From: Leptospira biflexa
Lineage (GTDB): Bacteria > Spirochaetota > DYNZ01
Direction: 5' to 3'
DNA length: 63,227 nt
Assembly: GCA_020720805.1 (NCBI GenBank)
Contig: DYNZ01000006.1
Location: forward strand, 22,632-85,858
Part shown: piece after piece, positions 41,448-58,287 of the stretch
Layout: each line of letters starts with the position of its first letter
How positions within the stretch are numbered: the first letter of the stretch is position 1
Position numbers and translations under genes: made by a program
The notes under the pieces: generated by a model
Told to the model about the DNA's origin: nothing
Database searches by the model: none
The model's input: the letters and a program-made list of their open reading frames with translations, nothing else

Positions 41448-41450
41448 ACA

Positions 41451-41514
41451 GATACCAGCGCTTATGGTTATCCCATATCGATGCCGTTACACGATAGCAC
41501 TCATCGCTGGTATC
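41451..41514. promoter_or_regulatory. Nested perfect inverted repeat (gataccagcg...cgctggtatc, inner tatcg...cgata) in the leader of the carboxyltransferase gene
   Basis: 10-bp arms at 41451-41460 and 41505-41514 with an inner 5-bp palindrome. Not followed by a U-tract on the transcribed (minus) strand. Confidence 0.3.
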
Positions 41515-41602
41515 AAAAAAAATGTTATAATAATGGATTTGTTAGAGAAAGTCCGGATCTCAAGTGGAAAAGTCAAGTAAAAAACTAACTTCCAGATCCG
41601 CT

Positions 41603-41878
41603 TCAACGGGAACTGATTTTATCCAGTCCAAGAATTTTTTTTAGAGATCCTTCTAAATGGAAAGCGGTGTACCCGCGCGGCATATAGCCGGTCTGGGCAA
41701 AGAGGTCAAAATCCTGCAACTGTTCTATTAAAATCTCGATCTCTTTCGTGAATGCCTTATAATGATCTGGATTGGCAATCAACGTTTCGATATGAACCAG
41801 GAGATAATCTGGTAAATCTTTCTCTGTCCGGGCTGATCGGGTTGCCTCTGCCAATTTTTCAAATAGCGCGCTACTCAT
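41603..41878 (-). CDS. Hypothetical small protein (91 aa)
   Basis: Intact ORF upstream of the carboxylase cluster. No recognisable motif. Confidence 0.35.
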   Translation of the reverse strand: MSSALFEKLAEATRSARTEKDLPDYLLVHIETLIANPDHYKAFTKEIEILIEQLQDFDLFAQTGYMPRGYTAFHLEGSLKKILGLDKISSR

Positions 41879-42179
41879 ACATTTACCATCCTATTCTTCG
41901 TTTGCCGAACTCATGAAGAGGTGAACCATCCATGTCAACCAGGAATCCTTTCAAAACCAGTAATTATTCCTTACCTTTGCGAAACTGCGTAATATACGAA
42001 TTTATTCTCAGCCTCATTTTTTTAAGGATGAATGAATGGTCCAAAATACAAATTATACTGGCAGACAAAGGAATCATCATAGATATTTTCATTGCCTTTT
42101 TGCCCCTTCCCTGCCAGAAAGCCAGTTATCCCTATCTTCGGATATCGATTGAGAGATAAAATCAGGAACAGCAGACAGC

Positions 42180-45023
42180 ATGATCGAGACACAAAACGAA
42201 TTTCTTGCAGTCATCTCCAAACTACAAAAACTTCTCATGGGTGAAGTATATTTCCATCCCATTCAGACGCAAATGGTCGCTACGGATGCCAGCATCTACA
42301 GCGTAAAACCTGTTGCTGTAATCTATCCTGCCTGCCATGAAGACGTTATTGCAGCCCTCGCGTTTGCCAGGCATCACAGGCTATCCGTCCATGCCCGCGG
42401 CGCTGGCAGCGGACTCTGCGGTTCAGCCATAGGCACCGGGATTATTCTTGATTTTTCGCGTTTTATGAATCGGCTACTCAATCTTGACATGGAAGGCCAG
42501 AGGTTTACCTGCGAACCTGGCTATCGATTTGGCGAGCTGGAAAAGGAGCTTGCCGCCCGAGGCCTCTTCTTTCCTCCGGATCCTTCCAGCGGCGAGTACG
42601 CCACATTCGGCGGTATGATGGGCACAAATGCCAGCGGCGCCCACTCCGTGAAATATGGAAATGTGGCTGATTATGTCGTGGACGCAAAATTTGCCCTGGC
42701 TGACGGATCAAGCTATCGTCTTTCAGAGTTGGCCGCTCTGGAGGAGTCATCTCTTCTCGAGCCCTTCCGGGAGTTATTTCAGCTCTACCAGGAGAACCGA
42801 CTCCAGATCCATTCCGCTTACCCTCCCATTCGCTATAATGTAGCTGGCTACAACCTCCGCGATATGGTGGTAGACAACCGCCTGCACCTACACAGACTTT
42901 TGACCGGCTCAGAGGGAACGTTGGCCATTATCACCGAAATTACCTTCGCGCTCCGGCCAAAGCCTCTCTACGATAGCCTGGTCGTAGCTTATTATCAAGA
43001 TATTGCCTCATCGGCTCGCGCGGTTCAGGAGATGATGCCATTACAGCCTGCGGGTATAGAGATCATGGACAAATCTCTGCTGGAACTGGCGCGACAAAGC
43101 GACCCCCTTCTCGCAGAAAAGATCCCGGCAGGAGTTGACAACGTTTTGCTTATAGAATTTGACTCCTTTCACGCCGAGGAGGCCGCTGAGGCAGCGAAGA
43201 AGGCGCAGCAGCTTTGCAACGCACTAGAGTCCTTTGTCGCCATCGAGAAAGAAGAGAAAGAAAAATTCTGGGCCGTGCGTAAGGCAGCGGTTCCTATCCT
43301 GTACAAGCTTAAGGGCGAGAAAAAAATTCTGGCTCTGATCGAGGATGCAGCTGTGCCTGTCGCGCAACTGGTCTCCTATTTTGCGGGAACCTACGCCCTG
43401 CTGCAGCGCCATAACGTCTCGTTTGTAGTGTATGGTCATATCGCCAAGGGTCTGATGCATACCCGACCGCTCTTAAACCTCAAAAATCAGCAGGATGTTT
43501 TTTTATTAAAGGTTATCGCTGATGAGTTTTTCGAACTGGTCTACAGCCTAGGTGGTGTTGTCTCCGGCGAGCATGGGGATGGCCGGATACGATCAGCTTA
43601 TATAGAGAAGCAGTACAAAAATATCTATCACCTTTTCCAACGAGTCAAGAAGATTCTGGATCCTGACCATACCCTGAACCCGGAGATCAAAAGCGGCCAA
43701 GATCAGGATCTGATCTGGCACAATCTCCGCTACGGCACTGAGTACCACTCCGAGGTGTGGTCGCAGCCTGCTCTGCTCTGGCCTGAGGGGCTGGATCTGG
43801 CTATCGAGACCTGTCACGGCTGCTCCAAATGCACCACGGTCACAACTGCTACGCGCATGTGCCCGATCTACAAATTCACCCGCAAGGAGGAGGCCAGCCC
43901 CAAGGCCAAGGCCAATCTGTTGCGGGCTCTGATTAGCGGTCAGATCGACTCCCAGGAGCTCTACAGAAAAACCCTACAGAACGTAATGGATCATTGCGTC
44001 AACTGCGGAAGCTGCTACCAGGAGTGCCCCTCCAATGTGAATATTCCCAAAATGGCTCTAGAAGCCCGCAGCCTCTACCGCCGTAGATTCGGAACTCCCC
44101 TGGCTTACCGCTTTTTGACCGGAGCAGAGCTAGCCGGCAGGAACACCAGAAAGTTCTCATTCCTATTGGCCTTTTTCATGAAAAGCAGCCTGATCCGCAA
44201 AGCAGCGGAAAAAATCAGCACTGTCAGCGTCTATAGGGAGTTTCCGCTCATGCCGGCCAGCTCCCTTCAGGATCGCATAATGAAAAAAGGGGCAACACAG
44301 AAAAGGCTGCACCAGAAAAAGGTACTCTATTTTGCCGGGTGCTACGCTTCGTACATCAGACCAGAGATTGGAGAAGCAGCCCTACGCTTACTTAACTACC
44401 TTCAGGTTGAGGTGATAACGCCGGAACAACATTGCTGCGGGCTGCCGATGCTCTCCAAAGGGATGAGCCGCGAGGCGAATGAAAAAATTCACCAGAATCA
44501 GATGCAATGGCAAGGTCTGTTGTCCGAGGTCGATGCAGTGGTGGTCACCTGCTCCTCCTGCGGCCTCTCCCTGACCAGGGAGTGGCAATACCTGGAGGAT
44601 TCCCCATTTACCAGAGCAGTCCAGGAGAAGAGCATCCATATCTCCCATTTTATCAACAACCTTGGAAATGCAGCCCTCGCCACATTGCGCAAGCCGATAG
44701 AGCAAAAACTTGCCTACCATATGCCCTGCCATTTGAAAGTTCAACCCCACTCAGGTAGCTCCCTGAGGATGTTGACCTCAATTGGTGGTTTGCAGGTTGA
44801 CAATCTGGATAGCCATTGCTGCGGTATGGCCGGCAGCTGGGGGATGAGCAGAGACAACTACGAGCTAAGCCGGAACATCGGATCCGACTTGGCTAAGAAA
44901 ATTTCTGCCAGCGAGGCGTCTGTCGCTATCACCGATTGTCCAACCTGTAGAATGCAGATCGAGCATCTCAGCGACAAACCGGTACGTCATCCAGTGGAGA
45001 TCCTGGCGGAACTCAGCCAGTAG
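42180..45023 (+). CDS. Fused FAD-linked oxidase (GlcD-like) / 4Fe-4S dicluster / CCG-domain (GlcF-like) oxidoreductase, putative 2-hydroxyacid (lactate/glycolate) dehydrogenase (947 aa)
   Basis: N-terminal FAD_binding_4 region. CHGCSKCTTV...CP and CVNCGSCYQECP ferredoxin motifs. Two C-terminal Cys-rich CCG-like repeats. Confidence 0.7.
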   Translation: MIETQNEFLAVISKLQKLLMGEVYFHPIQTQMVATDASIYSVKPVAVIYPACHEDVIAALAFARHHRLSVHARGAGSGLCGSAIGTGIILDFSRFMNRLLNLDMEGQRFTCEPGYRFGELEKELAARGLFFPPDPSSGEYATFGGMMGTNASGAHSVKYGNVADYVVDAKFALADGSSYRLSELAALEESSLLEPFRELFQLYQENRLQIHSAYPPIRYNVAGYNLRDMVVDNRLHLHRLLTGSEGTLAIITEITFALRPKPLYDSLVVAYYQDIASSARAVQEMMPLQPAGIEIMDKSLLELARQSDPLLAEKIPAGVDNVLLIEFDSFHAEEAAEAAKKAQQLCNALESFVAIEKEEKEKFWAVRKAAVPILYKLKGEKKILALIEDAAVPVAQLVSYFAGTYALLQRHNVSFVVYGHIAKGLMHTRPLLNLKNQQDVFLLKVIADEFFELVYSLGGVVSGEHGDGRIRSAYIEKQYKNIYHLFQRVKKILDPDHTLNPEIKSGQDQDLIWHNLRYGTEYHSEVWSQPALLWPEGLDLAIETCHGCSKCTTVTTATRMCPIYKFTRKEEASPKAKANLLRALISGQIDSQELYRKTLQNVMDHCVNCGSCYQECPSNVNIPKMALEARSLYRRRFGTPLAYRFLTGAELAGRNTRKFSFLLAFFMKSSLIRKAAEKISTVSVYREFPLMPASSLQDRIMKKGATQKRLHQKKVLYFAGCYASYIRPEIGEAALRLLNYLQVEVITPEQHCCGLPMLSKGMSREANEKIHQNQMQWQGLLSEVDAVVVTCSSCGLSLTREWQYLEDSPFTRAVQEKSIHISHFINNLGNAALATLRKPIEQKLAYHMPCHLKVQPHSGSSLRMLTSIGGLQVDNLDSHCCGMAGSWGMSRDNYELSRNIGSDLAKKISASEASVAITDCPTCRMQIEHLSDKPVRHPVEILAELSQ

Positions 45024-45067
45024 AAACACCGCAGAAAAGTTAATTTTACGAAAAAAAGGAGAACGCC

Positions 45068-46696
45068 ATGGAAGCAAAACGGAAATCAGCGGCAAATATC
45101 TTTGTAGAGCAGCAGGCAAGCGACGAAGACAATTTCGTATCAGAACCAGCCATGGAGGAGATCCAGGAGCCATTGCGTATGGATCGAATTGCCGCGCCAG
45201 CAGCCGCACCAACGCCAAAGGGCAAGGCCCCCAATATGCAGCTATTGTCCCAGATCAAATCTTCGGAGGAGCTGCAACTGGAAAAGGAGCCGGTCCGTCT
45301 GCGCGAGACAGGGCGCTGGTTTTGGCGCAAGATCATTGTTCCACCGAACGCCTATGTTGTGCACACCCGCTTCAACCAGAAAGAGCCCATTACAATCGGC
45401 ATGGGACTTTCGTTTCGCTACAACCCTTTCAAGGACTCTTATCTTGTGATCCCTGGAGCCATGCAGACCATCGGCGTTGTGGCCACCTGCATCACCAAAG
45501 AGAAGCAGGGTATCAACATTCTTGCCTATGTCCAATGGCAGATCGAGGATTTCTCGATCGCCTACCGCAAACTCGACTTTTCAGACAGCCGCGACCCGCT
45601 GGGTATTGTCAATGCCCAATTACGGGAACAGGCCGAGGCAGCTATCAAGGATAAAATTGCCACAATGAGCGTTGAAGAGGTTCTCACGGACAAAGAGCCA
45701 GTCATCGAAGAGCTGACTGCACGCCTGAAACTGGTAACAGAAGGAAGGCAAAAAGGAGATCAAACCGCGCAAGAAGGACTGGGCATCAAAATTGTTACGG
45801 TCCAGATCCGCGAGGCAATTGTCAGCTCTGCCTCACTATGGGAAAATCTGCAAAAGCCTTTCCGCTATGAAAAGGAGAAAAGCGCCCGAATTAGCTACCT
45901 TAACACCCAGCGCGAAATCCATGAAAAGGAGTTAGAGACCAAGCTGGTTAATGAACAGGGACGGACACAAACGGAGTTTGAAATCGCCAGGTTGCGCCAG
46001 AGCAAGGAGACAGAAACCCATGAGCTGCGACTGCGCCAGGAGAGTATTCGTTTTTCCCGGGAGCAGGAGGATCAGCGCCAGCGTTTGGAGCAACAGGAGC
46101 AATCTGAGCTGGCAGGCATGGAATCAAGGGAGCGCATCCGCATCCGTGAAAACCAGTTTCATATCGATGAAGAGAAGCGGAGAATCAACCAGGATTTCCA
46201 GAGCCAGATCAACACCCTGCAGGAGGAGACCCGGATGAAGGAGATTCAACTGGAGCTGGAGGGTCAATTGTTACGCCAGCGCCTCGAATTGGAAAAATTG
46301 CGCGCACAGGTAGCTCAGTTAGAGCAGCAGAATCTGGACCAGATGGAGGCAATGCGTCTCGAGGCGCGACTGCACCGCACCGAGCAGGAGAACCAGGCAG
46401 ATCTCGCATGGCAGAGCCGCCAGCAGGAGCAGGAGTTTATCAGCCAGAAAAACGCGGCACACATTGAAGAGTTACGTCAGCAGATTAAAAACAGAATCGG
46501 TGAAAATGACATCCTGGCTCAACTGGTGGCCAGGCTGCCGGAGATCGCCCAGGCCATGCCGGAGATCAAGGATTTGCGCATTGTGCAGACAGGAGCGCAA
46601 CCCGATTTCGCGGAGTCGCTGATCTCCTTTGTAACCAAGATCCTGGCCATGGCAAAGGGCGTGGATTTTGGCAGGGAGAACCCCAGCGCCGACTGA
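45068..46696 (+). CDS. Flotillin-like SPFH/band-7 protein with long Q/E-rich coiled coil (542 aa)
   Basis: SPFH core (VVHTRFNQKEP...IEDFSIAYRKL) and ~300 aa of coiled coil. Confidence 0.7.
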   Translation: MEAKRKSAANIFVEQQASDEDNFVSEPAMEEIQEPLRMDRIAAPAAAPTPKGKAPNMQLLSQIKSSEELQLEKEPVRLRETGRWFWRKIIVPPNAYVVHTRFNQKEPITIGMGLSFRYNPFKDSYLVIPGAMQTIGVVATCITKEKQGINILAYVQWQIEDFSIAYRKLDFSDSRDPLGIVNAQLREQAEAAIKDKIATMSVEEVLTDKEPVIEELTARLKLVTEGRQKGDQTAQEGLGIKIVTVQIREAIVSSASLWENLQKPFRYEKEKSARISYLNTQREIHEKELETKLVNEQGRTQTEFEIARLRQSKETETHELRLRQESIRFSREQEDQRQRLEQQEQSELAGMESRERIRIRENQFHIDEEKRRINQDFQSQINTLQEETRMKEIQLELEGQLLRQRLELEKLRAQVAQLEQQNLDQMEAMRLEARLHRTEQENQADLAWQSRQQEQEFISQKNAAHIEELRQQIKNRIGENDILAQLVARLPEIAQAMPEIKDLRIVQTGAQPDFAESLISFVTKILAMAKGVDFGRENPSAD

Positions 46697-46737
46697 TCCA
46701 GGACATCCTGCGCCGCCAATGGCCGTGCAGGACATCC

Positions 46738-47829
46738 TTAGATCCGGGCCGGGCGATCCTTGTCCCTGACCTTTGTAATATCAAAAAAAGGACTTTTTTT
46801 GCTGCCCCAGAACACCCCTGTCATATACTTTCCGTCAATGGGTATGCGGTAACTGAAAAAATAGGGCTGTTTGCGATAGTGGCGGATCTGGGGCACAGTC
46901 ACATTTCCAACCCCCATAAAAAAACGAAAGCCCTTCTGGTAGAGATAGGCAAACTTATCATTGTTGTAGGTATCTTCGCCATAGGCCCAGATATAGAGGT
47001 CGGTTTTCCCAACCAGAGAGGCTATCCTCTCCTCCCACAGATCGGTATCCCGTTTGAAGGTGGCATACGATACCTTTTGCGAAAAGATGTGCACATAGCT
47101 ATGCGAGGCAAAACGGTATTTCATCGATTTCAGCTTGTCAATAATCGGCTGAGCCAGAGCCTTCTCCTCATCCGCGATCCCCTTCTTCTGCGTCCTGTAA
47201 CCAAGCACACCATCAAAACCAGTTAGGGCAATCATCGCGCGTGCCCCTTTCCAGGAAAAATCAGGATGAAGGGCGATAAACTTCTCGAGCTGCGAAACAA
47301 TGTTGTTGTGGCCAATCTGTGTTGTGCCGTCAGGCTGAATCTCCTCTGAGGCGATCACCCCCTTGTCCAAAACCAGGCGGGATACAGTTCCATTTTTAAT
47401 ATGCGCTTTATAATAGTTGAGGTCGTCTACAGACATTACAAAAGGCTTCTTTCCCTTTGGCAGGCGCAGGCTCTGCTTGTGAATCCCCTTACCGTCGCTC
47501 TTGTAGGTGTCATAGATATCCACCAGGATATAATTACGCTGGTACAAACTCTCCAGAACGCGCTGAAACTCGCCAAGGGTGACAAACCAGAGCTGGATGT
47601 AGTTGTAGTGGCGGTTGGCACGGTTAAAAAAGGAGTCCTTCTTGTGGATAATCAGGGGGTGAAAAAAGATATGTTCCACATCCCCCTGAAACTCAACGGT
47701 CTCCTGCACCATCGGGTCAGGTTGCTTGCTAACGGAGGCCTCCTGGGGCTTTTGGCAGGACAGGGCAAAAAAAAGCGGAAGCAGAACTGACAGACGAAAC
47801 ATTCGGTACAGGGTTTTAGAATTGGTCAT
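46738..47829 (-). CDS. Lipoprotein, possibly polysaccharide-deacetylase-like (363 aa)
   Basis: Lipobox LSC-Q. MSVDDLNYY and HSYVH motifs weakly reminiscent of the deacetylase/DUF2334 fold. Confidence 0.3.
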   Translation of the reverse strand: MTNSKTLYRMFRLSVLLPLFFALSCQKPQEASVSKQPDPMVQETVEFQGDVEHIFFHPLIIHKKDSFFNRANRHYNYIQLWFVTLGEFQRVLESLYQRNYILVDIYDTYKSDGKGIHKQSLRLPKGKKPFVMSVDDLNYYKAHIKNGTVSRLVLDKGVIASEEIQPDGTTQIGHNNIVSQLEKFIALHPDFSWKGARAMIALTGFDGVLGYRTQKKGIADEEKALAQPIIDKLKSMKYRFASHSYVHIFSQKVSYATFKRDTDLWEERIASLVGKTDLYIWAYGEDTYNNDKFAYLYQKGFRFFMGVGNVTVPQIRHYRKQPYFFSYRIPIDGKYMTGVFWGSKKSPFFDITKVRDKDRPARI

Positions 47830-47902
47830 AGTTGAAGTGATCTTTCTTGCATAGCGCGTGGTAAAATTTTAAGAGGTAAATAAAATTCAAAAAGCCATCT
47901 TA

Positions 47903-48003
47903 TACTAAAGGCATTTTGGTTTTCGGATATCGCAAGGCAATGCCAGCGATGTCGACGCACCCTTTAGCCAGAATAAAACCCGAGAACCAAAGTGTTTCGA
48001 GTA
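47903..48003. repeat. Family D MITE (101 bp, inverted orientation), TA-flanked
   Basis: Reverse complement of 62780-62880. Imperfect terminal inverted repeats tactcgaaacactttggttctcgg / tactaaaggcattttggttttcgg. ORF 47900..48088 is spurious. Confidence 0.7.
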
Positions 48004-48316
48004 TATTTTGCACCCATTGGTAACACACGAAAGGGAACCAGGCTCTTGAAAACAGGATAACGATCCAAAAACTTCTTCTATTTGTCAATACTATTCATAT
48101 TTGAGATATCGAAAAACCCATCTCAAGATTCTTCCCGTGAAAAACGGTTTGGAAAATCTCCTCTGCTAGAATTTTCTCAAGGAAAAGGAGGAGATAGTTG
48201 GGTAATTCCGAGTTTGTAAGCAGGAATAGCATTATCCTTTTTCAATTATAACTTGAGGAAGGCAAGGTTTTCATCATTCTTATTGATAGGTTTAAGAGTT
48301 CCAAAGAGTTTTTATC

Positions 48317-48553
48317 ATGACCGTCTTAATGGAAGAGCGCGTTAACAACCTGGAAGTCATTCTCGGTCATTTCTTTGCCAGCACTGGTACATCCATAAAC
48401 CGCCTGGAGCGGGAAATGGTGAACTTCAAGAATGAAATGCTGAATTTCAAGGGCGAAATGGTGGATTTCAAGAATGATATGAAAGATTTCAAGTGTGAAA
48501 TCAATAAAAAAATTCGGAAGGCTTCATGTCGAAGTACTGGTAGAAGGGTTTAG
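48317..48553 (+). CDS. Small coiled-coil protein with FK-x-EM heptad-like repeats (78 aa)
   Basis: EREMVNFKNEMLNFKGEMVDFKNDMKDFKCEI repeats. Divergently oriented to a related coiled-coil gene. Confidence 0.35.
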   Translation: MTVLMEERVNNLEVILGHFFASTGTSINRLEREMVNFKNEMLNFKGEMVDFKNDMKDFKCEINKKIRKASCRSTGRRV

Positions 48554-48609
48554 TACCACCGGTAATCAAGATCAATCCAGCAAAACTGTGGCGCAGACTA
48601 AAAAATATC

Positions 48610-48987
48610 TCAGGTAAATTTCAACACAGAGATTACAATCGCCGCTGTAGTTACCGTCAGTCCAAAGCTCCAGCGCATAAAAGAATCCATGCGCTTTTCC
48701 AGATTTTCGATTCTACGTTCAACCTGCTCAAAACGCTTATCCACCTGCTCAAAGCGACCATTCATATATCCAAGCAGCTCTTCAAAACGCTTGTCAATTC
48801 GATCAAAGCCCTGCATCATCAGCTCGCGCTGGTGCTTGAGCTCTTCCTCCACGCGGACCATGCGTTCGCGCAGTTCGATCTCATACACCACCGGTGGTTT
48901 GCCGAGACTCTGCTCTGCCAGCATCTGAACCAGATTCCCTTTGATGAAATTTTTGACTTCTTCTAAATCCGCTGCTGATAAAGCCAT
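48610..48987 (-). CDS. DUF1640-like coiled-coil protein with C-terminal TM anchor (125 aa)
   Basis: Repeats DKRFEELL.., RFEQVDKRFEQVERRIENLEKRMD and a terminal hydrophobic helix GLTVTTAAIVISVL. Preceded by the 57-bp promoter-like repeat and an AAGGA Shine-Dalgarno. Confidence 0.5.
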   Translation of the reverse strand: MALSAADLEEVKNFIKGNLVQMLAEQSLGKPPVVYEIELRERMVRVEEELKHQRELMMQGFDRIDKRFEELLGYMNGRFEQVDKRFEQVERRIENLEKRMDSFMRWSFGLTVTTAAIVISVLKFT

Positions 48988-49010
48988 CGTTTTTATCCTT
49001 GCGAGGTTCT

Positions 49011-49067
49011 ATATTTTAATAATATGACATTACCTGCCGTAAAAGCAAGTAAAAATTCCAGTCTCTA
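49011..49067 (-). promoter_or_regulatory. 57-bp perfect direct repeat copy 1; sigma70-like promoter on the minus strand (-35 TTGCTT at 49043-49048, 18-bp spacer, -10 TATTAT at 49019-49024) driving the DUF1640-like gene
   Basis: Identical 57-mer at 50019-50075. Promoter hexamers read on the reverse complement. Gene start 24 nt downstream. Confidence 0.4.
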
Positions 49068-49140
49068 CATCTGCCAGCCGCTCCCGGACAAATGCGACAT
49101 AATGCAGTGTCTTTCGCTGCCTTTCCCTCCCGGACGGGAT

Positions 49141-49377
49141 TACGAAAGGCATTTTGGTTTTCGGATATCGCAAGGCAATGCCAGCGATGGCGACGCACCC
49201 TTTAACCAGTATTTACTGTTTGCAATGGACTTTGTCCCGCAACCGTTAATGCCAAGGTCGATAAGGACGCGGTTATGGCATTGCCCAACCGGTCAAATCT
49301 TGTGCTGAGTTTATCGAAGCATCGATGCTTATTGGTATAAAACCCGAGAACCAAAGTGTTTCGAGTATATATGCTAC
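49141..49377. repeat. Composite repeat: family D MITE split by a nested family A insertion (A at 49211-49336, inverted; TA duplicated at 49209-49210 and 49337-49338)
   Basis: D halves 49141-49208 and 49339-49377 are contiguous in intact copies (gggtttta|tactgg). ORFs 49024..49308 and 49202..49552 are spurious. Confidence 0.7.
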
Positions 49378-49436
49378 AATTGAAACGGGGCTGAAAAGTG
49401 CCAGTATGAAATAACCTAAAAATTGATACCAAACTC

Positions 49437-49730
49437 TTATAAATTTCTCTCTTTCCAGTATCCTGGAAAGCGAAAGAGATGGGAAATGGCAATAATATAA
49501 ACAATGTCACTTTCCACAGTATAAATAATGCCAAATGGAAATTTTTTAACAATTTTCCTTCGGAATTTTTTATCTAAGGCCTCGCTAGATTTTGGAAACA
49601 TTTTAATTGATTGAATCGCCTCCTCTATATCACTTAAAAAATCGAGTCCTAATCCGGATGCCTGCTCTTCATAGTAATCAATTGACTCAAACAGCTCATC
49701 ACGTGCTTCAGGCACAAAAACTGCTTTCAT
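49437..49730 (-). CDS. ParE/RelE-family type II toxin (97 aa)
   Basis: FPFGIIYTVESDIVYIIAISHLFRFPGYW C-terminal signature. 4-nt overlap with the upstream antitoxin gene. Confidence 0.65.
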   Translation of the reverse strand: MKAVFVPEARDELFESIDYYEEQASGLGLDFLSDIEEAIQSIKMFPKSSEALDKKFRRKIVKKFPFGIIYTVESDIVYIIAISHLFRFPGYWKERNL

Positions 49731-49954
49731 TTTTTTAATTTTAATTTTGCCTTTTCCAATATATCAGTATCTGAATATCCTTTTTTGCCTGAAGCTTGAA
49801 ATTTCTCCCACCTATCTTTCGTTTCCTGAAGCCAGATGCCATCAAAGTTCTCAAAAATACTTTGCGAAACATTGTGGAGCAAATTATGAAGCAATTTGGC
49901 TTGTTCCTGATTTGAAAGCTGGGTAATCTCTTTTTCTATCTCTTTTAATTGCAC
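49727..49954 (-). CDS. Antitoxin, 'addiction module component' (Unstab_antitox-like; 75 aa; GTG start with AGGAG Shine-Dalgarno)
   Basis: IWLQETKDRWEKFQASGKKGYSDTDILEKAK resembles the PF09720 family. Operon with the ParE-like toxin. Confidence 0.55.
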   Translation of the reverse strand: MQLKEIEKEITQLSNQEQAKLLHNLLHNVSQSIFENFDGIWLQETKDRWEKFQASGKKGYSDTDILEKAKLKLKK

Positions 49955-50018
49955 AGCCCGGACTCCTGAATTATTAACAGATGCAGAATAACAGTACTCA
50001 TTTTACCTGAATCCTCTG

Positions 50019-50075
50019 ATATTTTAATAATATGACATTACCTGCCGTAAAAGCAAGTAAAAATTCCAGTCTCTA
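50019..50075 (-). promoter_or_regulatory. 57-bp perfect direct repeat copy 2; same promoter-like module (-10 at 50027-50032, -35 at 50051-50056) upstream of the toxin-antitoxin operon
   Basis: Identical to 49011-49067. ORF 50038..50268 across it is spurious. Confidence 0.4.
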
Positions 50076-50720
50076 TTAAGGGGCATTCGTAACATCTGAA
50101 AAATGTATATTCCCCATCTCCGCATAGTTTAGAAATTATGACGCTAATTTTACCATTTTTGGAAAAAAATCCATCCGAACAATTGCAATGATACCAGTAT
50201 TCAACCTTCCCTGCTGTCCTGCCAGCCGCCCTCGAAACAATGCGACATAATGCGGCCATTTCCGTCACCTCACAGCCTGACGGCTAATGCGACATAACGT
50301 GACGGCTTTATAGTCCTTATCAAATCTGCTAGCCGACTACCAAATTATCCGACTAACAGCACATTTACGAATCGACTTCCTGACACTGCCATAATGCGCT
50401 ATAATGCAACCTCTTTCGCTACAAACCGATTGGCGCAGAGGGTAAATTTGCCCCCATGATATTGAGTCTGGCCAATTCCCCGCAACAATGATTTAAAACA
50501 GCAAAGCCCTGCATGCAGCAAGGCTTCGATAAAATTGGTTGGGATTACTCTTTTCCCGTATAATATCACCGGACCTCCGTGCCAGATACTGCAAGATCCG
50601 TCTATAAAACAAATTATGGATCCAAAAAGTTTAATAAATTATTTTTCTATAACCACATCACCTTTTTATGTATTAATGATATTTGTGTTTTCAAACTGCA
50701 TCTCTTCCTTTTAGCAGATA

Positions 50721-51224
50721 TCATTCAAAAGTAATATTAAATAGTTTAAAAGATCCTTTATATTCGACTATCGCTTTAAAAATTTCTGAAGTAGAAATTT
50801 CGTTATCATCCTTTTTAAAGGTAATTGGTATATCTCTATAAATTTTAATTTCGCCATAATGGAGCACTTTTTTAGGTTGTCCAATTTTAACAAATTCATA
50901 ATTTGCAAATTTACGAAGAGCTCGCCTTGGTCCTTTTATCATATCTGGAATCATCAAACCCCAATAGTCAATACCACTAATTCCAGATTTTTTTTCTGGC
51001 AAATGAGGATACACTAACTTAATAAATTCTTTTTTTGTAATCATTTTCTGGCGAAATAAAGGTTCATCATTTTTTTTAATTGCTGTTGTAATTGAGTTTA
51101 CTAATTTTTCTAACGATTTCTCACCATTTGCAAATTCAATTGTTTTTTCCGAGCAAGAGAAAAAAAATAAAAATAAAAAAAATAATAAAAATTTGTATAT
51201 ATACATAATATCAGTCCCTCTCAA
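50721..51224 (-). CDS. Small lipoprotein of unknown function (167 aa)
   Basis: Signal peptide + lipobox FFSC. Last gene of the TonB-dependent receptor locus. Confidence 0.5.
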   Translation of the reverse strand: MRGTDIMYIYKFLLFFLFLFFFSCSEKTIEFANGEKSLEKLVNSITTAIKKNDEPLFRQKMITKKEFIKLVYPHLPEKKSGISGIDYWGLMIPDMIKGPRRALRKFANYEFVKIGQPKKVLHYGEIKIYRDIPITFKKDDNEISTSEIFKAIVEYKGSFKLFNITFE

Positions 51225-51274
51225 AAAAAAAGAGAGGCAAAAAACCTCTCTCTTTTAATCAATTGCGAAAAAAT

Positions 51275-52702
51275 TTAATTGAGGCTAAAATTTGTCCAGG
51301 TTTCAGCCCAGTTGGTGCCTGCCGGATCGATAGCGCCAACATAGTTGGTTCCTGTCAAATCCATGGAAACACCAGCCCAGTTTGTCATATTGGTAGTCAC
51401 GAATGTAGATACAGTCGCTGTACTAGCAGCTGGTTTGAAATTTGCGGCTCCGCCCTCGCCCCAGTAGGTGGTTGGCGCTGTCAAAGAGGTCATAGCAGCA
51501 GCAAATTCATTGTTAGCTATTTGGTCAAATGTAGTTTCATTATCAATAACAATATTGAGACCTGCAACATCTGTAATTGCTGTACCGCTGGCAGTTACCT
51601 TCTCAAACTTATTGGATAATAATGCACTGACAAAATTACCATTCAACGTGTTATTATCAGTGATTCCATTTAATCCGGTCGATGAAAAAAAAGTAGAACT
51701 TGGTGCTTCAGTAGCTTGTGCAGCATGTTTGATATGTCTATCTGTAAAATTTGCAATCAAGGAATTAACCAAAACAAGCTGTCCATTGGCCTTAACATCA
51801 AAAATTTTTCCACCTGCTTTTGTATCCCCTACAATGGTAAAATTGGAAAAGAATGATTGGGTAGCACGAGACTGATCTGCACCTAAGCCATCATATTCGA
51901 TCATTGCATCAGTATAATTTGAGGAGGCAATGATAAAATGGTGGGCTGAACCACTCCAACCTTCATCCAAGTCAAAGCCGTCATCTTCATTATGTGTTAT
52001 TACGATATGAGAAAGGCTAACGGTACCACCAAATATTTCAATTCCGTCGTCTGATCCACGGTGTGTTTGAACGTATTGGATAGTAGTTCCACTTCCAACG
52101 CCAGCAAGAAATAAACCGTTAAATTCCTTACCAGAAGAAATTTCACGACCTGCAAATTCTATCCGAACATACTTCAATACACCACTGTTATCAGCTTTAG
52201 TTTCGCCACCATAAGGACCAGTATAGATTTCAGTATCAGTTGCAATATTAACACCCGCGCTATTATTTACAGGTGCTTTTCCGTGAATGACAATACCACC
52301 CCAGTCTGAAGATAATCTTGAGCCAGCTGCCTTGTCAGATGTGAAAACAATCGGTTTCGCTGCTGTTCCCTCGGCCATTATTTTACCACCCTGCTTGATA
52401 GCTAAATAAGAAAGGAATTCTGATTTAGCCTTAACAGTGACACCAGGATTGAGTGTAATTGTACAATCAGAGGGAATGTAAACAGCCCCTGATAATGTAA
52501 TTGTTGCATCAGCCGCAACAGTTACATTTTGTCCGGCATATGTACTAGGCGAAAGAGTATCACCATCAACTAAGCTTAGCGAACCACCTGAACATGTCTG
52601 TGTAGTCGTCTCTGTATTACCCTCATCAGTATTGCAAGCGCTAATAAAAAGCATTCCGACAAGAGCGATAGCAGTCATTGTAGCAAATGAAATTTTTTTC
52701 AT
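51275..52702 (-). CDS. Surface lipoprotein, T/S/G-rich, beta-helix-like, partner of the TonB-dependent receptor (475 aa)
   Basis: Lipobox ISAC. Repeated DDG(I/F)(E/D) turns (SDDGIEIFGG, EDDGFDLDEG). Immediately downstream of the receptor gene, as in SusC/SusD-type pairs but not SusD-like in sequence. Confidence 0.5.
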   Translation of the reverse strand: MKKISFATMTAIALVGMLFISACNTDEGNTETTTQTCSGGSLSLVDGDTLSPSTYAGQNVTVAADATITLSGAVYIPSDCTITLNPGVTVKAKSEFLSYLAIKQGGKIMAEGTAAKPIVFTSDKAAGSRLSSDWGGIVIHGKAPVNNSAGVNIATDTEIYTGPYGGETKADNSGVLKYVRIEFAGREISSGKEFNGLFLAGVGSGTTIQYVQTHRGSDDGIEIFGGTVSLSHIVITHNEDDGFDLDEGWSGSAHHFIIASSNYTDAMIEYDGLGADQSRATQSFFSNFTIVGDTKAGGKIFDVKANGQLVLVNSLIANFTDRHIKHAAQATEAPSSTFFSSTGLNGITDNNTLNGNFVSALLSNKFEKVTASGTAITDVAGLNIVIDNETTFDQIANNEFAAAMTSLTAPTTYWGEGGAANFKPAASTATVSTFVTTNMTNWAGVSMDLTGTNYVGAIDPAGTNWAETWTNFSLN

Positions 52703-52745
52703 TTATTTTCTCCTATCAATTTATTTGATTAAAAATCAAACCATT

Positions 52746-55487
52746 TTACAAACTATGAGTATAGCCAAAGGAAACATTGACACCTTTTTTATACTCTTTT
52801 ATCAATTTTTTTTCAGCACCAGTGCCTTGATTTTGCTCTATTTTATCATTTAATATATTTGCAATAGAAATTTTTAATTGGCCTTCTTTGAAAATCTTTT
52901 GAGAGAAGGTAATATCTAATTGATTAAAAGGCTCTTCATAAACATTGTCTAGACCATTTACTCCAACATTGACAATCCTTCGTGCAAAATAATTGTACAA
53001 TAGTGCAAACTCTGAACCAATTGAGTAAATCTTGTACGTTAATCCAAAATTAAAAAGCATTGGAGACTGTCCTTGTAATGACCGACTAGAATCAGTTTCT
53101 GCACTTCCCAGAGAAGGATCCAATTCAATTTCGGAATAGGACCATGTAAAATTTGCCAATACTGACAATGCTTTCAAAGATTCGGCTATAAAAGAAAAAT
53201 CTTTTTTAATCTCTAACTCAAATCCATATACCATAGCCTTCTTTTGGTTCGCAAAAGTAAATGTTGGATCGTCAGCAATGCCAATAGTTGCTTCAATTGG
53301 ATTTTGAATATCTTTAAGAAAGAAACTCAAAGCTAAAATCTCCTCAACCGTTGGAAAAAACTCAAATCGCAGGTCATAGTTCTGAATATCTGCCTTTTCC
53401 AAATTTGGATTACCTTTAATAATAAAGCCCGTTTCTAATTGATCGTAATAGTTATACATGCCCATTTCAACAAATTCCGGTCTATTTATTGTTTTGCTAT
53501 AGCCAAATCTAAGATTTATTTTATCCATCATTGTATAAACAATATTTGCATTGGGCAATATTTCAGTATTTATAATTGATGAGGTATAGAGGGTATCTTT
53601 ATAAAATATGGAATATGCAGAAACTGTTTGCTTCCAATTTTCAACCCTCACACCACCTATTATTCGCAATGACCTTGTGATTAGAAGATCTATTATTCCA
53701 TAACCAGAATAAATATTTAAATCAGCTTCGTAAGAATCCAGCCCAGTTGTTAAATTATCTCCGGTTAATTCACTAATACTTAAATCATTATTGGTAATCA
53801 GCTCTTCTGGTGTACCGGTTGAATTACTTATGCTAGTAATATTTTGGAATAAAATTCGAAACCTACGACCTTCATTTACTCTTTTTTTTGTAATAATATC
53901 ACTTCCAATTCTTATCTTAGAGTTTAATCCATCCCATTGCTTAAATGGAAAAACATACTCTGGTGCAAATTGAAAACTTATTTCTCTATGATCATTATAA
54001 TATTTCTGCATTGGTATACTTGGATCAATGTTTCCTGATGACATATAAAAGAGTGTTGAGACATCGGGCTGCTTTCTTGTTGTAAGAGAATAACCAACAT
54101 TCCAAATAATTGCATTATTTTCTGTAAATAAATCAAAAACATGGTCACCAGTGAATTGATTAAACCACAAATTTGTTTCTTCATATGATGAAATATATTC
54201 GGTTCCGTATTGTTTACCTTCGGAAATCTTGCCTTGCTTTATCTTAGCTGAAGTATCAGATTGATGTGTATAGAATGTGTTATATTTGATTTTGTTTTTG
54301 GGAGAAAAGGCATATGCAAGTGACAATTGTGTAGTTGCAACTGTAGAAAAAGTTGATTGGTCATATGTCAAATCCACTAGTTTGTAATCAGTTCCTTGAT
54401 ATCTAATTTCTTTGGCATCTTTGATTGTTTTTGACGACTCACTCATAGCCACGGAGAATAAGAGACCTAGCGCTTTTCCATTATCATAATTATAAGTATT
54501 ACCAAAGGAAAGATTAAAGCCTCCTCCTGGAATTCCAACTTCAGAGGAAGGAATGTAATCACGCCTAAAACTCTTGGCCATTGCATCTAATTCAGCTAAT
54601 GTATAATTACTATTATTAGCCTTCTTTGAGTCACTAAAAAGATCTGGAATATCACGCTCTCCTGCATCAAAACCAAAAAAACTATAATCACTTCCATGAA
54701 GAGCCAGAAAATCTTTAAATGTAGTTTGACTATTGTAATTCAAACTAAAGCCAACCTTGAAATCATATTCTGTCGGATAATCTCGAGTGTTAAGTTGTAC
54801 TGCCCCAGCTGTGGAGTCCGATGCCATATCAGAAAGATATGATTTGCTAATGATTAAATTATCAAGTAGGCTTACTGGGAAAATATCTAAAGGTACAACT
54901 TTCCTAGATGGTAACGGTGAAGGAACTTGTAATCCATTTACGGAAATTGTAGAATATCGTTCTGACAGTCCTCTGATATATATATACTTCCCTCCAAGAA
55001 TACTTACACCGGTAACCCTCTTTGCCGCATCCGCTGCATTTGAATCTGGTGACTTTTTTATCTGCTCTGCAGAAATAGCATCCTGTGCAACAGCAGCCTT
55101 TTTACGCTGCGAAGTCAACGCAGCAGTTGTGTTGCTTATTCGTCTTCCCTGTACGACAACAGTTTTTCTTGATTGATAGGCCATGGCCACATTTGCTGAT
55201 ACTCTTTTATTATCTAAAACAGCCACATTGACTTCATAAGGTTGATATCCCGCTATTTGAAATTTTACGGTATGGCTGCCCGCAGGAACCTTGGTGATGG
55301 TGTAATTACCATTAAAGTCTGTCACGCCTGCATAGGTTTTGTCTCCATCCTTGATAAAGACAACGACCCCTATCATGGGTTCACCGGAAAGGTTATCGAT
55401 GACGGTTCCATTCACAATACCCTCGGCGGCCAGAGCCAGAGGGAGCAGAACCAGAGTTGCGAGTATAAAAATAATTTTCTTTATCAT
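52746..55487 (-). CDS. TonB-dependent outer-membrane receptor with N-terminal CarboxypepD_reg-like domain (913 aa)
   Basis: Signal peptide, CarbopepD_reg segment GTVIDNLSGEPMIGVVVFIKDG...DFNGNYTI, plug and a long beta-barrel region. Confidence 0.8.
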   Translation of the reverse strand: MIKKIIFILATLVLLPLALAAEGIVNGTVIDNLSGEPMIGVVVFIKDGDKTYAGVTDFNGNYTITKVPAGSHTVKFQIAGYQPYEVNVAVLDNKRVSANVAMAYQSRKTVVVQGRRISNTTAALTSQRKKAAVAQDAISAEQIKKSPDSNAADAAKRVTGVSILGGKYIYIRGLSERYSTISVNGLQVPSPLPSRKVVPLDIFPVSLLDNLIISKSYLSDMASDSTAGAVQLNTRDYPTEYDFKVGFSLNYNSQTTFKDFLALHGSDYSFFGFDAGERDIPDLFSDSKKANNSNYTLAELDAMAKSFRRDYIPSSEVGIPGGGFNLSFGNTYNYDNGKALGLLFSVAMSESSKTIKDAKEIRYQGTDYKLVDLTYDQSTFSTVATTQLSLAYAFSPKNKIKYNTFYTHQSDTSAKIKQGKISEGKQYGTEYISSYEETNLWFNQFTGDHVFDLFTENNAIIWNVGYSLTTRKQPDVSTLFYMSSGNIDPSIPMQKYYNDHREISFQFAPEYVFPFKQWDGLNSKIRIGSDIITKKRVNEGRRFRILFQNITSISNSTGTPEELITNNDLSISELTGDNLTTGLDSYEADLNIYSGYGIIDLLITRSLRIIGGVRVENWKQTVSAYSIFYKDTLYTSSIINTEILPNANIVYTMMDKINLRFGYSKTINRPEFVEMGMYNYYDQLETGFIIKGNPNLEKADIQNYDLRFEFFPTVEEILALSFFLKDIQNPIEATIGIADDPTFTFANQKKAMVYGFELEIKKDFSFIAESLKALSVLANFTWSYSEIELDPSLGSAETDSSRSLQGQSPMLFNFGLTYKIYSIGSEFALLYNYFARRIVNVGVNGLDNVYEEPFNQLDITFSQKIFKEGQLKISIANILNDKIEQNQGTGAEKKLIKEYKKGVNVSFGYTHSL

Positions 55488-55759
55488 GATTTTTATTTAG
55501 CATCCTTTTATGTTTTTTTTGTTACAATTCTGAAAAAAAATTTTAAAAAAGAATAACAGTTTGTTTTTTCGTCAAAAAAATTACTATCTAATCATCATCA
55601 CACAAACAGCTAACAATCGAAAGGAAAGTGCAGGCATAAAAAAAGGTCAGCCTTGAAACCACAGTCTCTCTGCTAACCTTTGTAGCTTACCCGTTCTATG
55701 TCCTGCTCTCTTTATCGTGATTGTCCGCTTTCCTTTTCCAATGAGATCCAGTCGCAGCC

Positions 55760-56503
55760 TTATATCAGCTTAAACTGGACAGGCTGGTAGATCTTGATTT
55801 TAATGGGTTTACCATCGCTGTTGATGCTCGGCTTGAAGGTTTTTCTCATGAACGCCTGTACTGCGTTCTGTTCCAGCCCATAGCCTAAGCGCTTCTTGCC
55901 GACGACGCGCGCACGCAGCACCTGCCCTTTGTCGCTAATAATCAGCTCAAGGGTAATTCGTCCTTCAACACCAGCAGATCTGGCAGCTGGCGAATATTCC
56001 GGTTGGATATGGGGAGCCAGATCCTGCGGTGCCGTGGCCGCCCCAGGGATATACTGCTGGGCGCCGTCGGCAATAGAATCGCCGGCCACCACGTTAGGGT
56101 CATTCAAATCAATTTTTTTATCCTCTTTTTCTTTGACATACTTATTGCCGAAGACCTCATCGACAATGACGATATTCACCTTTTTTCTATAGCGTCTCAG
56201 CGGTCTGAACTCACCAAAATTGACTACCGTGACCTTCATGTTGTCAAACTCCTTGTTCAAGGAGTCGCTGCTTTTCCACTCTATGGCCATCAGCGATTGA
56301 AAAAAGAGAAGAAGAAAAGCGAGAATAAAATGCAAACTGAATCTCTGGAAAATATTTTTTTTCTTCACTTCTTCAAAAGAGTTGTATATCGGCAGCTTTT
56401 CGATTAGCTGCTGGCGTTGTTCGCTGCGCATATCTGTTATCCCAAATTTCCAGAAATTAGATCTTTTTTGCGGTTTTACTATCGGCGTCCACGGCCAGAC
56501 CAA
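55760..56503 (-). CDS. tonB: Energy transducer TonB (probable start at internal Met; 247-aa ORF)
   Basis: TM anchor, Pro-containing spacer and TonB_C domain (GVEGRITLELIISDKGQV...). Confidence 0.7.
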   Translation of the reverse strand: MVWPWTPIVKPQKRSNFWKFGITDMRSEQRQQLIEKLPIYNSFEEVKKKNIFQRFSLHFILAFLLLFFQSLMAIEWKSSDSLNKEFDNMKVTVVNFGEFRPLRRYRKKVNIVIVDEVFGNKYVKEKEDKKIDLNDPNVVAGDSIADGAQQYIPGAATAPQDLAPHIQPEYSPAARSAGVEGRITLELIISDKGQVLRARVVGKKRLGYGLEQNAVQAFMRKTFKPSINSDGKPIKIKIYQPVQFKLI

Positions 56504-56897
56504 CTTTGGAAATCCCTGCCAGCTTTACCTGATCAAGGATCACCAACATCTTCTTATATTGGATGTCGCCCTCGGCGCGCATGATCACTGCCACATCCGG
56601 ATGGATCTGCTTCAATGATTTTAAACGGCCAGGCAGAGCCTCCATATCGGTGACAGGTTTGTCATTCCAATAGAGAACCTCTTTATCCTTTACCTGCTTG
56701 ATGGTAAGGGCAATCTTATGAGGCTCTTGCTTCATCGCCGATGCGTTCACCTTGGGCAGGGATACGGGAACAGTGCGGTATTTTGTAAACTCAGCCGTTA
56801 CCATCAAAATAATGACAAGCACCAGCATGATATCCACCAGCGGGGTGACATTTATACCGCTGATTTCACCATCATTATCTGAAACATTTGCTGCCAT
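56457..56897 (-). CDS. exbD: Biopolymer transport protein ExbD/TolR (146 aa)
   Basis: INVTPLVDIMLVLVIILMV single TM helix and ExbD fold. Confidence 0.8.
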   Translation of the reverse strand: MAANVSDNDGEISGINVTPLVDIMLVLVIILMVTAEFTKYRTVPVSLPKVNASAMKQEPHKIALTIKQVKDKEVLYWNDKPVTDMEALPGRLKSLKQIHPDVAVIMRAEGDIQYKKMLVILDQVKLAGISKVGLAVDADSKTAKKI

Positions 56898-56934
56898 GCA
56901 GAACTCCTAATCTTGTGGATAATGTTGAAATAGC

Positions 56935-57966
56935 TTACTCAGAAGCCATTTTCATGTCAGCCAGATCCTTTTCATTGAGAATCAACTGACCTGTGGTTGT
57001 AGAGTGCGCCTCTTTGGCATATAGTTGTACGCCTGCCAGACCCTCTTTCTCAAAAGCGGCTCTGACCCCGGTCATGATATCGATAATCTCTTCCGCGTTG
57101 GACAGCTTGCTTTTGACCATGGTAGAGAATATGTTGTAGGATATAACGCAGGGGATCGCAACACCAAGACCAAACGCGGTAGCGATCAAAGCCTCGGAAA
57201 TACCCTTCATAACCACAGCCGGACCTGCGTCGCCGACCATCGCCAGATCGCTAAAGGCGCGCATGATTCCCAATACAGTACCAAGCAGTCCAATAAATGG
57301 GGTATTGTTTCCCAGCGTAGATAAAATTACTAGCCAGCGGTTGAGACGGCGACGCTCAGCCTCCATAGCGGCCTGGGCAAACTCGCGCATGGATTGTTCA
57401 CCAAATGGCCAACCTTCGAGGGTCTTTGCAGCGACCCTACCCTCCATACCGTAACGCGGATGGCGGATATGTTTGATTAGATCGTGAGGATTATCCGAAT
57501 TGCGCGCAAGCCCCTCAGTTAACAGGCGAATCAGCTTATCATTTTTTCCCTTATTTTTATAAAATACAAATGCACGTTCAATACTTACCGCAATGGCCAC
57601 CAGAAACAGAAAGATCAAAACCCAAACGGTTGGATCTTCAATCTTAGTCAGATCAAATTTTCCGGCTTCGGCAAGGGCGTTCACCTCAGCGGGCGCGCTG
57701 CCATCTGGTTTTACGTCAGAGGCAATCAGTTGGCCTTTGATATCTTTGCTGTCAGGCGTGGTTCCGGAAAACGCATCCGCTTGGAAACGAAAAAAGATAA
57801 CTGCTGCCAGCAGCAGAAAAAAACTGGTGTACATAAATCTGGTTTTCGAAATTTTTTTCATTGCAATCCTGTTATTTCTCAACGCTGGCGAGGTTTGACC
57901 GCCATGATTTCCCCGTATCATAGATAACTCCTTAAAATCGATAGATAAAAACTTTCTCTTTTTCAA
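56935..57966 (-). CDS. exbB: ExbB/TolQ/MotA-family proton channel with extended N-terminal periplasmic region (343 aa)
   Basis: MotA_ExbB core ...GLLGTVLGIMRAF... Confidence 0.75.
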   Translation of the reverse strand: MKKRKFLSIDFKELSMIRGNHGGQTSPALRNNRIAMKKISKTRFMYTSFFLLLAAVIFFRFQADAFSGTTPDSKDIKGQLIASDVKPDGSAPAEVNALAEAGKFDLTKIEDPTVWVLIFLFLVAIAVSIERAFVFYKNKGKNDKLIRLLTEGLARNSDNPHDLIKHIRHPRYGMEGRVAAKTLEGWPFGEQSMREFAQAAMEAERRRLNRWLVILSTLGNNTPFIGLLGTVLGIMRAFSDLAMVGDAGPAVVMKGISEALIATAFGLGVAIPCVISYNIFSTMVKSKLSNAEEIIDIMTGVRAAFEKEGLAGVQLYAKEAHSTTTGQLILNEKDLADMKMASE

Positions 57967-58167
57967 ATTGATAACATTGGAAGTTTATGCTTTCCCGATG
58001 AAAGCGATTGTTCCCCGCAGCAGCAGGATTTCTTAACAAGAAAGCACACAATTGTTACATATATATGAGCGGTTTCTATTTTTTGCTTTTTTCAGATATT
58101 TTCCAAGGGAGTGAAAACAATAATTTTCCTCTCAAATCATTCTTTCTCACAAAATACTAACATATCT

Positions 58168-58186: not shown

Positions 58187-58287
58187 ATATTAAAAGTAAT
58201 TGTAATGTATCAGAAAAATCTTAGCTTTAAGATGCGCCGAACGCAAAAAATCTCATTATTTAACTATCATAGAAACAGGATCAAACC

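Follow-up and report, generated by a model that had tools for sequence, protein, structure and literature searches.

The locus described here lies in a window of 63,227 nt (the whole stretch of DNA that was analysed), which is chromosomal core with flagellar genes, gyrA, methylmalonyl-CoA mutase and signalling proteins, and whose FliI has its best named relatives, at ~61% identity, among Spirochaetota MAGs. Between ~48 and 55 kb the GC content is 32-42%, versus 46-52% elsewhere in the window. Two neighbouring units on the minus strand occupy part of this low-GC patch (Table 1): an operon of antitoxin and ParE-family toxin genes and, downstream of it, a gene encoding a coiled-coil protein of 125 aa whose C-terminal segment is hydrophobic. 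Ahead of the operon is a 766-nt ORF-free region, the distal end of which is marked by a terminator-like hairpin and in which no pseudogene remnants of local proteins were found. Directly 5' of each unit, and in the case of the operon within the ORF-free region, lies one copy of an identical 57-nt sequence, and it is this pair of sequences that concerns us.

Table 1. Positions in the window of the two units, of the DNA they share and of neighbouring features.
Feature	Position	Strand	Basis or remark
125-aa coiled-coil protein gene, C-terminal hydrophobic segment	48610..48987	-	ATG start
57-mer copy 1	49011..49067	-	exact match; 23 nt (48988-49010) 5' of the start (ATG) of the coiled-coil/TM gene, 125 aa
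Imperfect inverted repeat TTACTTGCT-N5-GGCAGGTAA in copy 1	49030..49052	-	overlaps putative -35 and spacer
35-nt bipartite block CTGCCAGCCGC-N9-AATGCGACATAATGC, upstream of copy 1	49071..49105	+	3 nt from 57-mer
MITE-like repeats, one nested in the other, between ParE gene and copy 1	49138..49370	.	repeat comparison
ParE-family toxin gene, 97 aa	49437..49730	-	PF05016, E=2e-7, 31.9 bits, cut-off 23
Antitoxin gene, 75 aa	49727..49954	-	GTG start; divergent PF09720 (Unstab_antitox) member
57-mer copy 2	50019..50075	-	exact match; 64 nt (49955-50018) 5' of the GTG of the antitoxin gene
143-nt segment, only between copy 2 and its 35-nt block	50076..50218	.	alignment of both units
35-nt bipartite block upstream of copy 2	50219..50253	+	143 nt from 57-mer
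Terminator-like hairpin and T-run after upstream 167-aa gene	50502..50528	-	terminator scan

The operon is of the antitoxin-first kind, its two ORFs overlapping by 4 nt, and the Pfam match of the toxin exceeds the cut-off; among species representatives, the closest ParE relative is only 43% identical. The antitoxin's own PF09720 match falls below the cut-off (E=4e-3), and a word index returned no homologues of it. An exhaustive HMMER search recovered six distant homologues (74-79 aa, 30-39% identity, E 3.5e-5 to 4.3e-4), each of which passes the PF09720 cut-off and aligns end to end, and the 75-aa protein is therefore accepted as a divergent antitoxin of this family. The antitoxin-ParE operon named in a preliminary description of this DNA is thus borne out by the toxin domain, the overlap of the two genes and the distant homologues of the antitoxin. 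The same description had called the coiled-coil protein DUF1640-like, a label that finds no support in Pfam (E up to 0.01) or NCBIfam, where the only signals are sub-threshold coiled-coil matches, and that should not be propagated. The protein belongs to a large uncharacterised family, with 2599 homologues, the best of them at 53-68% identity. Genes of this family recur beside toxin-antitoxin (TA) modules (PhdYefM-PIN) as well as in tandem arrays that include upstream DNA, so the family evidently resides in variable, duplication-prone neighbourhoods. The proteins of the two units are not homologous to each other, as tblastn against the window finds each only itself and their Pfam assignments differ.

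The 57-mer, ATATTTTAATAATATGACATTACCTGCCGTAAAAGCAAGTAAAAATTCCAGTCTCTA, occurs exactly twice on the plus strand, at a start-to-start spacing of 1008 nt; the perfect repeat reported in the preliminary description was recovered unchanged by exact matching. Counted from the start codons, the copies occupy -24 to -80 (copy 1) and -65 to -121 (copy 2), leaving 23 and 64 intervening nucleotides and agreeing with the distances of 24 and ~65 nt given earlier. Both copies have the orientation of the genes that follow them, lying on the coding strand directly 5' of the start codons, and AAGGA and AGGAG precede the start codons of the 125-aa and antitoxin genes. Even with up to 3 mismatches allowed, the 63-kb window yields no third match, and the repeat arose in none of 100 dinucleotide shuffles, with none expected by chance.

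On the gene-distal side of each copy, the two units share a second, shorter stretch. The 35-nt blocks at these positions are identical at 30/35 bases and consist of two exact parts, CTGCCAGCCGC and AATGCGACATAATGC; all 5 mismatches are confined to the 9-nt spacer between them. The related sequence previously seen after each copy is thus real, and its offset from the 57-mer differs between the units (3 versus 143 nt). A 15-mer motif of the block is enriched, and two further degenerate copies of it are found at 50286-50300 and 50393-50407. The 143-nt segment next to copy 2 was either inserted there or lost at copy 1; it occurs nowhere else in the window and lacks clear terminal repeats. Past the 35-nt block the similarity is not significant, the tail at 49106-49140 sharing only a 9-mer with the DNA upstream of copy 2, a match that 107 of 500 shuffles equal. 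Three blocks of this shared DNA, 11, 15 and 57 nt long, are identical, and one 9-nt patch and one 3-versus-143-nt indel make up the differences, as would be expected if recent copying had been followed by two local changes.

Both copies of the 57-mer are also found in independent assemblies, JGI 3300000234 and GCA_974334805.1, which indicates that the repeat is genuine. Two contigs of JGI metagenome 3300000234, covering 38610-49356 and 49266-59730, match the window at 100% identity, and the 91 nt that they have in common fall within the MITE separating the units; this overlap supports the adjacency of the units, and the possibility of an assembly artefact was rejected on the same evidence. In GCA_974334805.1, contig 77 matches the window identically over 49209-59730, and contig 51 is identical over 38610-49298 bar two SNPs and then departs into a different flank via a variant MITE copy. 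One of these SNPs, a T-to-G change on the coding strand at position 49032 of the window, falls within copy 1, and in this assembly the two copies are consequently 56/57 identical to each other. Copy 2 is unchanged in the compared loci L003, L004 and L005.

The MITE at this junction is one of many in the window, where two or more MITE-like families of 4-6 copies each populate the intergenic DNA. Copies of one family, X, lie near 3548-3745, 12108-12192, 15706-16268, 25695-25790 and 63105-63227; the other, Y, is 108 nt long with terminal inverted repeats and is found at 25538-25645, 47900-48007 and 62777-62884. Between the ParE gene and copy 1 the two are nested, an X inserted at ~49213-49339 splitting a Y into parts at ~49141-49212 and 49335-49370, and it is at this nested junction that contigs of other assemblies break or switch. 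One practical use of the finding is as a warning that assemblies break at this MITE-rich junction.

With nested MITEs beside copy 1, and with many published mobile promoters having turned out to be IS or MITE ends (PMC3488235), the 57-mer and 35-mer might themselves be a piece or an end of some dispersed mobile element, possibly with an outward promoter, whose copies came to lie side by side by chance. X and Y are indeed, like the 57-mer, non-coding intergenic repeats, and they adjoin copy 1. The two families, however, have terminal inverted repeats, nested insertions and 4-6 copies per 63 kb, recurring throughout the sequence as real MITEs do, whereas the 57-mer has no sequence similarity to either, no evident terminal inverted repeats or target-site duplications, and only two copies, 1 kb apart. 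The latter count holds for ~83 kb of this genome (the window and ~20 kb of extra flanks), in which a sensitive short-word search found only the known copies and no partial ones, so that none of the marks of a MITE or IS terminus (dispersed copies, terminal inverted repeats, target-site duplications) was seen there. Outside this genome, an exact scan with a 24-nt core of the 57-mer gave 0 matches in GTDB species representatives, JGI metagenome contigs and IMG/VR, the bipartite 35-mer with free spacer gave 0 in metagenome contigs, and blastn of 48600-50720 against plasmids and phages returned no match. The further copies that the preliminary description had proposed to look for were thus found neither in these ~83 kb nor in public collections, and in the available sequence the repeat is restricted to this locus. 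We consider it very improbable that the 57-mer is the end of a mobile element. No close relatives for conservation tests were found, and the lineage is poorly sampled; comparison of the 57-mer with DNA upstream of homologues of the coiled-coil gene was not significant, as 55-894 of 1000 shuffles reached the score.

What, then, might the repeated sequence do? Promoters of the sigma70 type, which Spirochaetota use, have -35 and -10 hexamers near TTGACA and TATAAT, a spacer of 16-18 nt, and initiation 5-9 nt downstream of the -10 hexamer. On the coding strand, the 57-mer reads TAGAGACTGGAATTTTTAC-TTGCTT-TTACGGCAGGTAATGTCA-TATTAT-TAAAATAT. In copy 1, a T-tract on the minus strand is followed by a putative -35 hexamer, TTGCTT, at 49043-49048, an 18-nt spacer and a putative -10 hexamer, TATTAT, at 49019-49024; in copy 2, the hexamers lie at 50051-50056 and 50027-50032. 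The preliminary description spoke of a near-consensus sigma70 promoter. The term 'near-consensus' overstates the match and should not be carried forward: TTGCTT agrees with the consensus at 3/6 positions and TATTAT at 5/6, for a total of 8/12, a spacer of 18 nt is not optimal, and the site stayed below the threshold of a consensus promoter scan and was not listed by it. A simple sigma70 weight matrix scores the site at 7.3 bits, a value reached or exceeded ~2 times per kb per strand in the window, and the chance that a random 57-mer bears such a site in the right orientation is ~10%. The same scan did list a rival site for the TA operon, TTAAAA-16-TAAAAT at 50027-50000 (9/12, 8.0 bits), which lies mostly in unique DNA. 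Since the site is mediocre and equally good ones are common, the sequence alone is weak evidence.

Geometry nevertheless favours the promoter reading and makes it plausible, as the putative site has the orientation of both genes, lies 5' of both start codons and ends where transcription is predicted to begin. For copy 1, the predicted start is at about 49010-49013, and in both copies the predicted +1 falls within ~2 nt of the gene-proximal edge of identity, so the 57-mer would span roughly -56 to +1 and carry no leader sequence. From these features we infer promoter activity of the 57-mer. The scan found no terminator-like site between the ParE gene and the 125-aa gene, and co-expression of the two units could therefore also come from read-through, in which case the coiled-coil gene may need no promoter of its own. 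A sigma54 reading of the 57-mer (TGGAAT...TTGC) was rejected by inspection, the spacing being GG-N11-GC against a consensus of N10.

The explanation that we favour, and to which we give about an even chance, is that the 57-mer is part of a duplicated, functional promoter segment. A short upstream segment, comprising the 57-mer and the bipartite 35-mer (~95 nt in the compact form seen at copy 1), would have been copied recently within a 1-kb neighbourhood, leaving the antitoxin/ParE operon and the coiled-coil gene with identical DNA from about -56 to +1. Two local events, the change of the 9-nt patch and the 3-versus-143-nt indel, would have followed the copying. The segment is most likely a moderate sigma70-type promoter, made up of the T-rich tract, TTGCTT, the 18-nt spacer and TATTAT, and the two units would be transcribed from the same signals, under the influence of any factor that recognises these. 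Instead of a recent copy, gene conversion still going on between the direct repeats, over a distance of 1 kb, might also keep the two sequences alike. Had the 57-mer changed as much as the 35-mer (86% identity), a 57/57 match would have a probability of only ~1.5e-4. In this view, the perfect match would stem from recent copying or from gene conversion, not from selection on every one of the 57 bases. The recency and the mechanism of the copying are what we infer from this pattern of identity.

Ranking second is the possibility that recombination left the repeat behind as a scar and that it plays no part in regulation. Perhaps a ~1-kb segment, containing a 57-mer, the leader, the antitoxin and ParE genes and their flanks, entered at a pre-existing 57-mer and produced an A-B-A arrangement; or, perhaps, a local duplication was later partly overwritten. 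In either case, the position of the repeats before start codons would be incidental. TA modules are typical mobile cargo, and several points count in favour of such a history: the direct repeats bracket exactly the TA operon and the nested MITE, so that the 'cassette-like duplication' offered as an option in the preliminary description also fits; the low-GC patch is strewn with MITE-like repeats; other assemblies break or switch in the region; the relatives of the coiled-coil gene also adjoin TA modules; and the promoter match is not distinctive. The window, however, contains no integrase, transposase or recombinase and no tRNA or tmRNA (nor any Rfam match at gathering scores, with only noise at E up to 5), and no empty site lacking the TA segment was found among the four recovered contigs, both of those with the coiled-coil gene sharing the same upstream sequence. 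In addition, a random scar does not predict that the proximal edge of identity should coincide with the predicted +1 in both copies. A scar would also need the arrangement of 35-mer and 57-mer in both partners beforehand, and an earlier duplication would still be required. We therefore regard the scar as possible but clearly less probable than the copying of a promoter segment.

A more specific form of acquisition, in which the 57-mers are attC-like sites of an integron-type array carrying a TA cassette, is effectively refuted. The small cassette-like genes, including the TA pair, with repeats between them, recall such an array, and attC sites have a lower size limit near 57 nt. The 57-mer, however, has no RYYYAAC/GTTRRRY core sites and no end-to-end fold (DNA MFE -2.7 to -4.4 kcal/mol, with only a short central 9-bp stem), it sits 5' rather than 3' of the genes, and there is no integrase in the 63 kb. 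With hairpin, core sites and integrase all missing, we give this reading almost no weight. A dif/Xer-like reading of GCGACATAATG was likewise rejected by inspection, as it lacks a second arm.

The preliminary description suggested that the two units are driven by the same promoter-operator module, with possible co-regulation of the coiled-coil protein by the antitoxin. Identical DNA in the same orientation does precede both units; its promoter match is ordinary, and its operator feature is weak. The only operator-like feature is the imperfect inverted repeat of copy 1 (Table 1), present at 50038-50060 in copy 2, with 9-nt arms, 7/9 Watson-Crick pairs and fold z values of -2.0 (RNA) and -2.3 (DNA). 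As a rule, type II TA operons repress themselves through operators that overlap the promoter, and in both copies the inverted repeat overlaps the putative -35 hexamer and the spacer, as might be expected if the 57-mer were a shared promoter-operator bound at both copies by the antitoxin or the TA complex, coupling the coiled-coil protein to the state of the TA module. Against this, the inverted repeat is hardly striking in its pairing or its z of about -2, and the SNP at 49032 in GCA_974334805.1 falls in its right arm in copy 1 and removes one pair. The antitoxin itself is a divergent PF09720 member, the model of which (pLDDT 77, pTM 0.35; modest confidence) has three helices and no strand and thus suggests neither a ribbon-helix-helix, nor an AbrB, nor a Phd-type N-terminus; Foldseek with the model and a profile search against PDB sequences returned nothing usable and no solved relative. 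Co-regulation by the antitoxin is thus unsupported, and we consider a shared operator very unlikely to be the reason for the repeat, if marginally less so than a mobile-element end. One may go further and imagine that the antitoxin, alone or in complex with ParE, represses both its own operon and the coiled-coil gene, that activation of the toxin induces the latter, and that the 57-bp direct repeats allow the TA segment to be excised by recombination. This we view as a long shot, but if it is true, promoter duplication would have turned a TA module into a local regulator of the transcription of a gene outside the TA system.

Among known systems, the auto-regulated type II TA operons parDE and relBE share with the present operon the antitoxin-first order, the 4-nt overlap and a toxin of the ParE family, and their promoter-operators resemble the small inverted repeat over the putative -35 and spacer. 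In contrast to those systems, the antitoxin here is of the PF09720 type, helical and without a recognised DNA-binding fold in its model, and the palindrome is weak. To our knowledge, a second copy of the operator before an unrelated gene is not a feature of auto-regulated type II TA systems. Islands flanked by att or attC sites are alike in having identical direct repeats, tens of bases long, around a small TA module in a low-GC patch, but they differ from the present locus in their recombinase, tRNA target, attC hairpin and core sites or empty-site variant, none of which is found here.

The closest parallel is with putative mobile promoters, which are similar non-coding stretches of 50-100 nt that lie less than 150 nt before non-homologous genes of one genome (PMC3488235). 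Operationally, they have to be 50 nt or longer, 80% or more identical and no further than 150 nt from the start codons of non-homologous CDSs, and more than 4000 families have been catalogued, the majority of which (2771/4074) have two members (PMC3488235; Matus-Garcia, Nijveen & van Passel 2012). One such family has been described in a spirochaete, Treponema brennaborense (PMC3488235). The 57-mer pair agrees with this definition in length and identity (57/57), in position (copies within -24 to -121) and in the lack of homology between the downstream CDSs (tblastn, Pfam), and by the published criteria it counts as a two-member family of putative mobile promoters. Promoter activity is putative for the 57-mer pair, as it is for most members of these families. 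In contrast to them, the two copies are 100% identical, 1 kb apart and placed before adjacent units, which looks like local duplication or conversion rather than dispersal.

Most likely, then, the duplication of the 57-mer is an ordinary instance of a known and common kind of event, and it would become notable only if the toxin-antitoxin proteins act on both copies. For annotation, it is useful that both units probably share their start signals. If the 57-mer is an active promoter, the locus would be a clean natural example of promoter reuse, in which a whole -56 to +1 unit has been copied onto a neighbour without coding or leader sequence, and would add one more case, from a poorly sampled spirochaete lineage, to a phenomenon catalogued in thousands of families.

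The intergenic DNA of the window carries MITE-like repeats. One is element Y, a 108-nt sequence (TATACTAAAGGCATTTTGG...CCAAAGTGTTTCGAGTATAT) that ends in inverted repeats of ~26 nt on either side and whose three intact copies in the window are 99-100% identical. A fourth copy is broken by a member of the second family, element X (TATACTGTTTGCAATGG...GCTTATTGGTATA), the inner part of which differs from copy to copy through deletions and further insertions, and which is much enlarged at 15706-16268. TATA-like sites, including within element Y, appear to be the insertion targets of element X. The window also carries a 44-nt unit enclosing the palindrome GGAAGCGATGC/GCATCGCTTCC, present as an exact tandem pair and as diverged copies at two further intergenic sites.

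Repeats and small features located in the window
Feature	Position	Strand	Remark
Element Y, intact	25538-25645, 47900-48007, 62777-62884		MITE-like
Element Y, split copy	49141-49212 + 49335-49370		MITE-like
Element X	3548-3745, 12108-12192, 15706-16268, 25695-25790, 49213-49339, 63105-63227		second intergenic repeat family
44-nt unit TGCGTATCGCTTCCGAATTATAAAATACAAAAAGGAAGCGATGC	15916-16003; also 13-56; 33333-33400 inverted
13-nt inverted repeat	49970-49982 and 50019-50031
78-aa ORF	48317-48553	+	called as gene in both other assemblies

The split copy of element Y is also where assemblies part. Contig 51 of GCA_974334805.1 parallels the window up to 49298, inside element X. Beyond this point (positions 9465-9700 of locus L001) its version of X is shorter, and the gene that follows is Peptidase_C39-like rather than ParE. 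This divergence at the MITE reflects either a strain rearrangement or a chimeric join; contig 77 of the same assembly agrees with the window and stops inside the same MITE.

The left edge of a low-GC patch (~48000-55500; 32-42% GC vs 46-52% in the flanks) coincides with the intact element Y at 47900-48007. The patch takes in the two small ORFs, the toxin-antitoxin (TA) operon and a 167-aa ORF, together with genes for a beta-helix protein and a TonB-dependent receptor. The 78-aa ORF, convergent with the 125-aa coiled-coil gene, contains three to four tandem 21-nt (7-aa) repeats at 48413-48501, EMVNFKN-like in translation, and returned no family match.

The 15-mer motif adjoining both 57-mers recurs more often than chance would suggest, with five matches at ≤2 mismatches in the window against 0.16 expected. 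Its core, AATGCGACATAAT, is also found on the minus strand at 6862-6876, 50 nt ahead of the fliI start codon (ATG at 6811), where ~0.002 exact 13-nt matches would be expected by chance in the window; together with TTGAGA 17 nt upstream of CATAAT, it makes a good sigma70-type match. One arm of the 13-nt inverted repeat lies in the -10-proximal end of the 57-mer copy preceding the TA operon (copy 2), the other in the antitoxin gene's unique leader. Its arms are 85% complementary and 36 nt apart, and this AT-rich pairing, found at copy 2 only, is possibly a chance product.

At one locus (L008, 8278-10888), homologues of the 125-aa coiled-coil protein form a five-gene tandem array in which the upstream DNA is duplicated too, adjoining CHAT/NB-ARC/TPR genes. 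In another lineage (L010-L013) their immediate neighbours are a PhdYefM-PIN pair and genes of the DUF2442 and DUF4160 families. Variable regions rich in TA and defence genes seem to be the habitat of this coiled-coil family.
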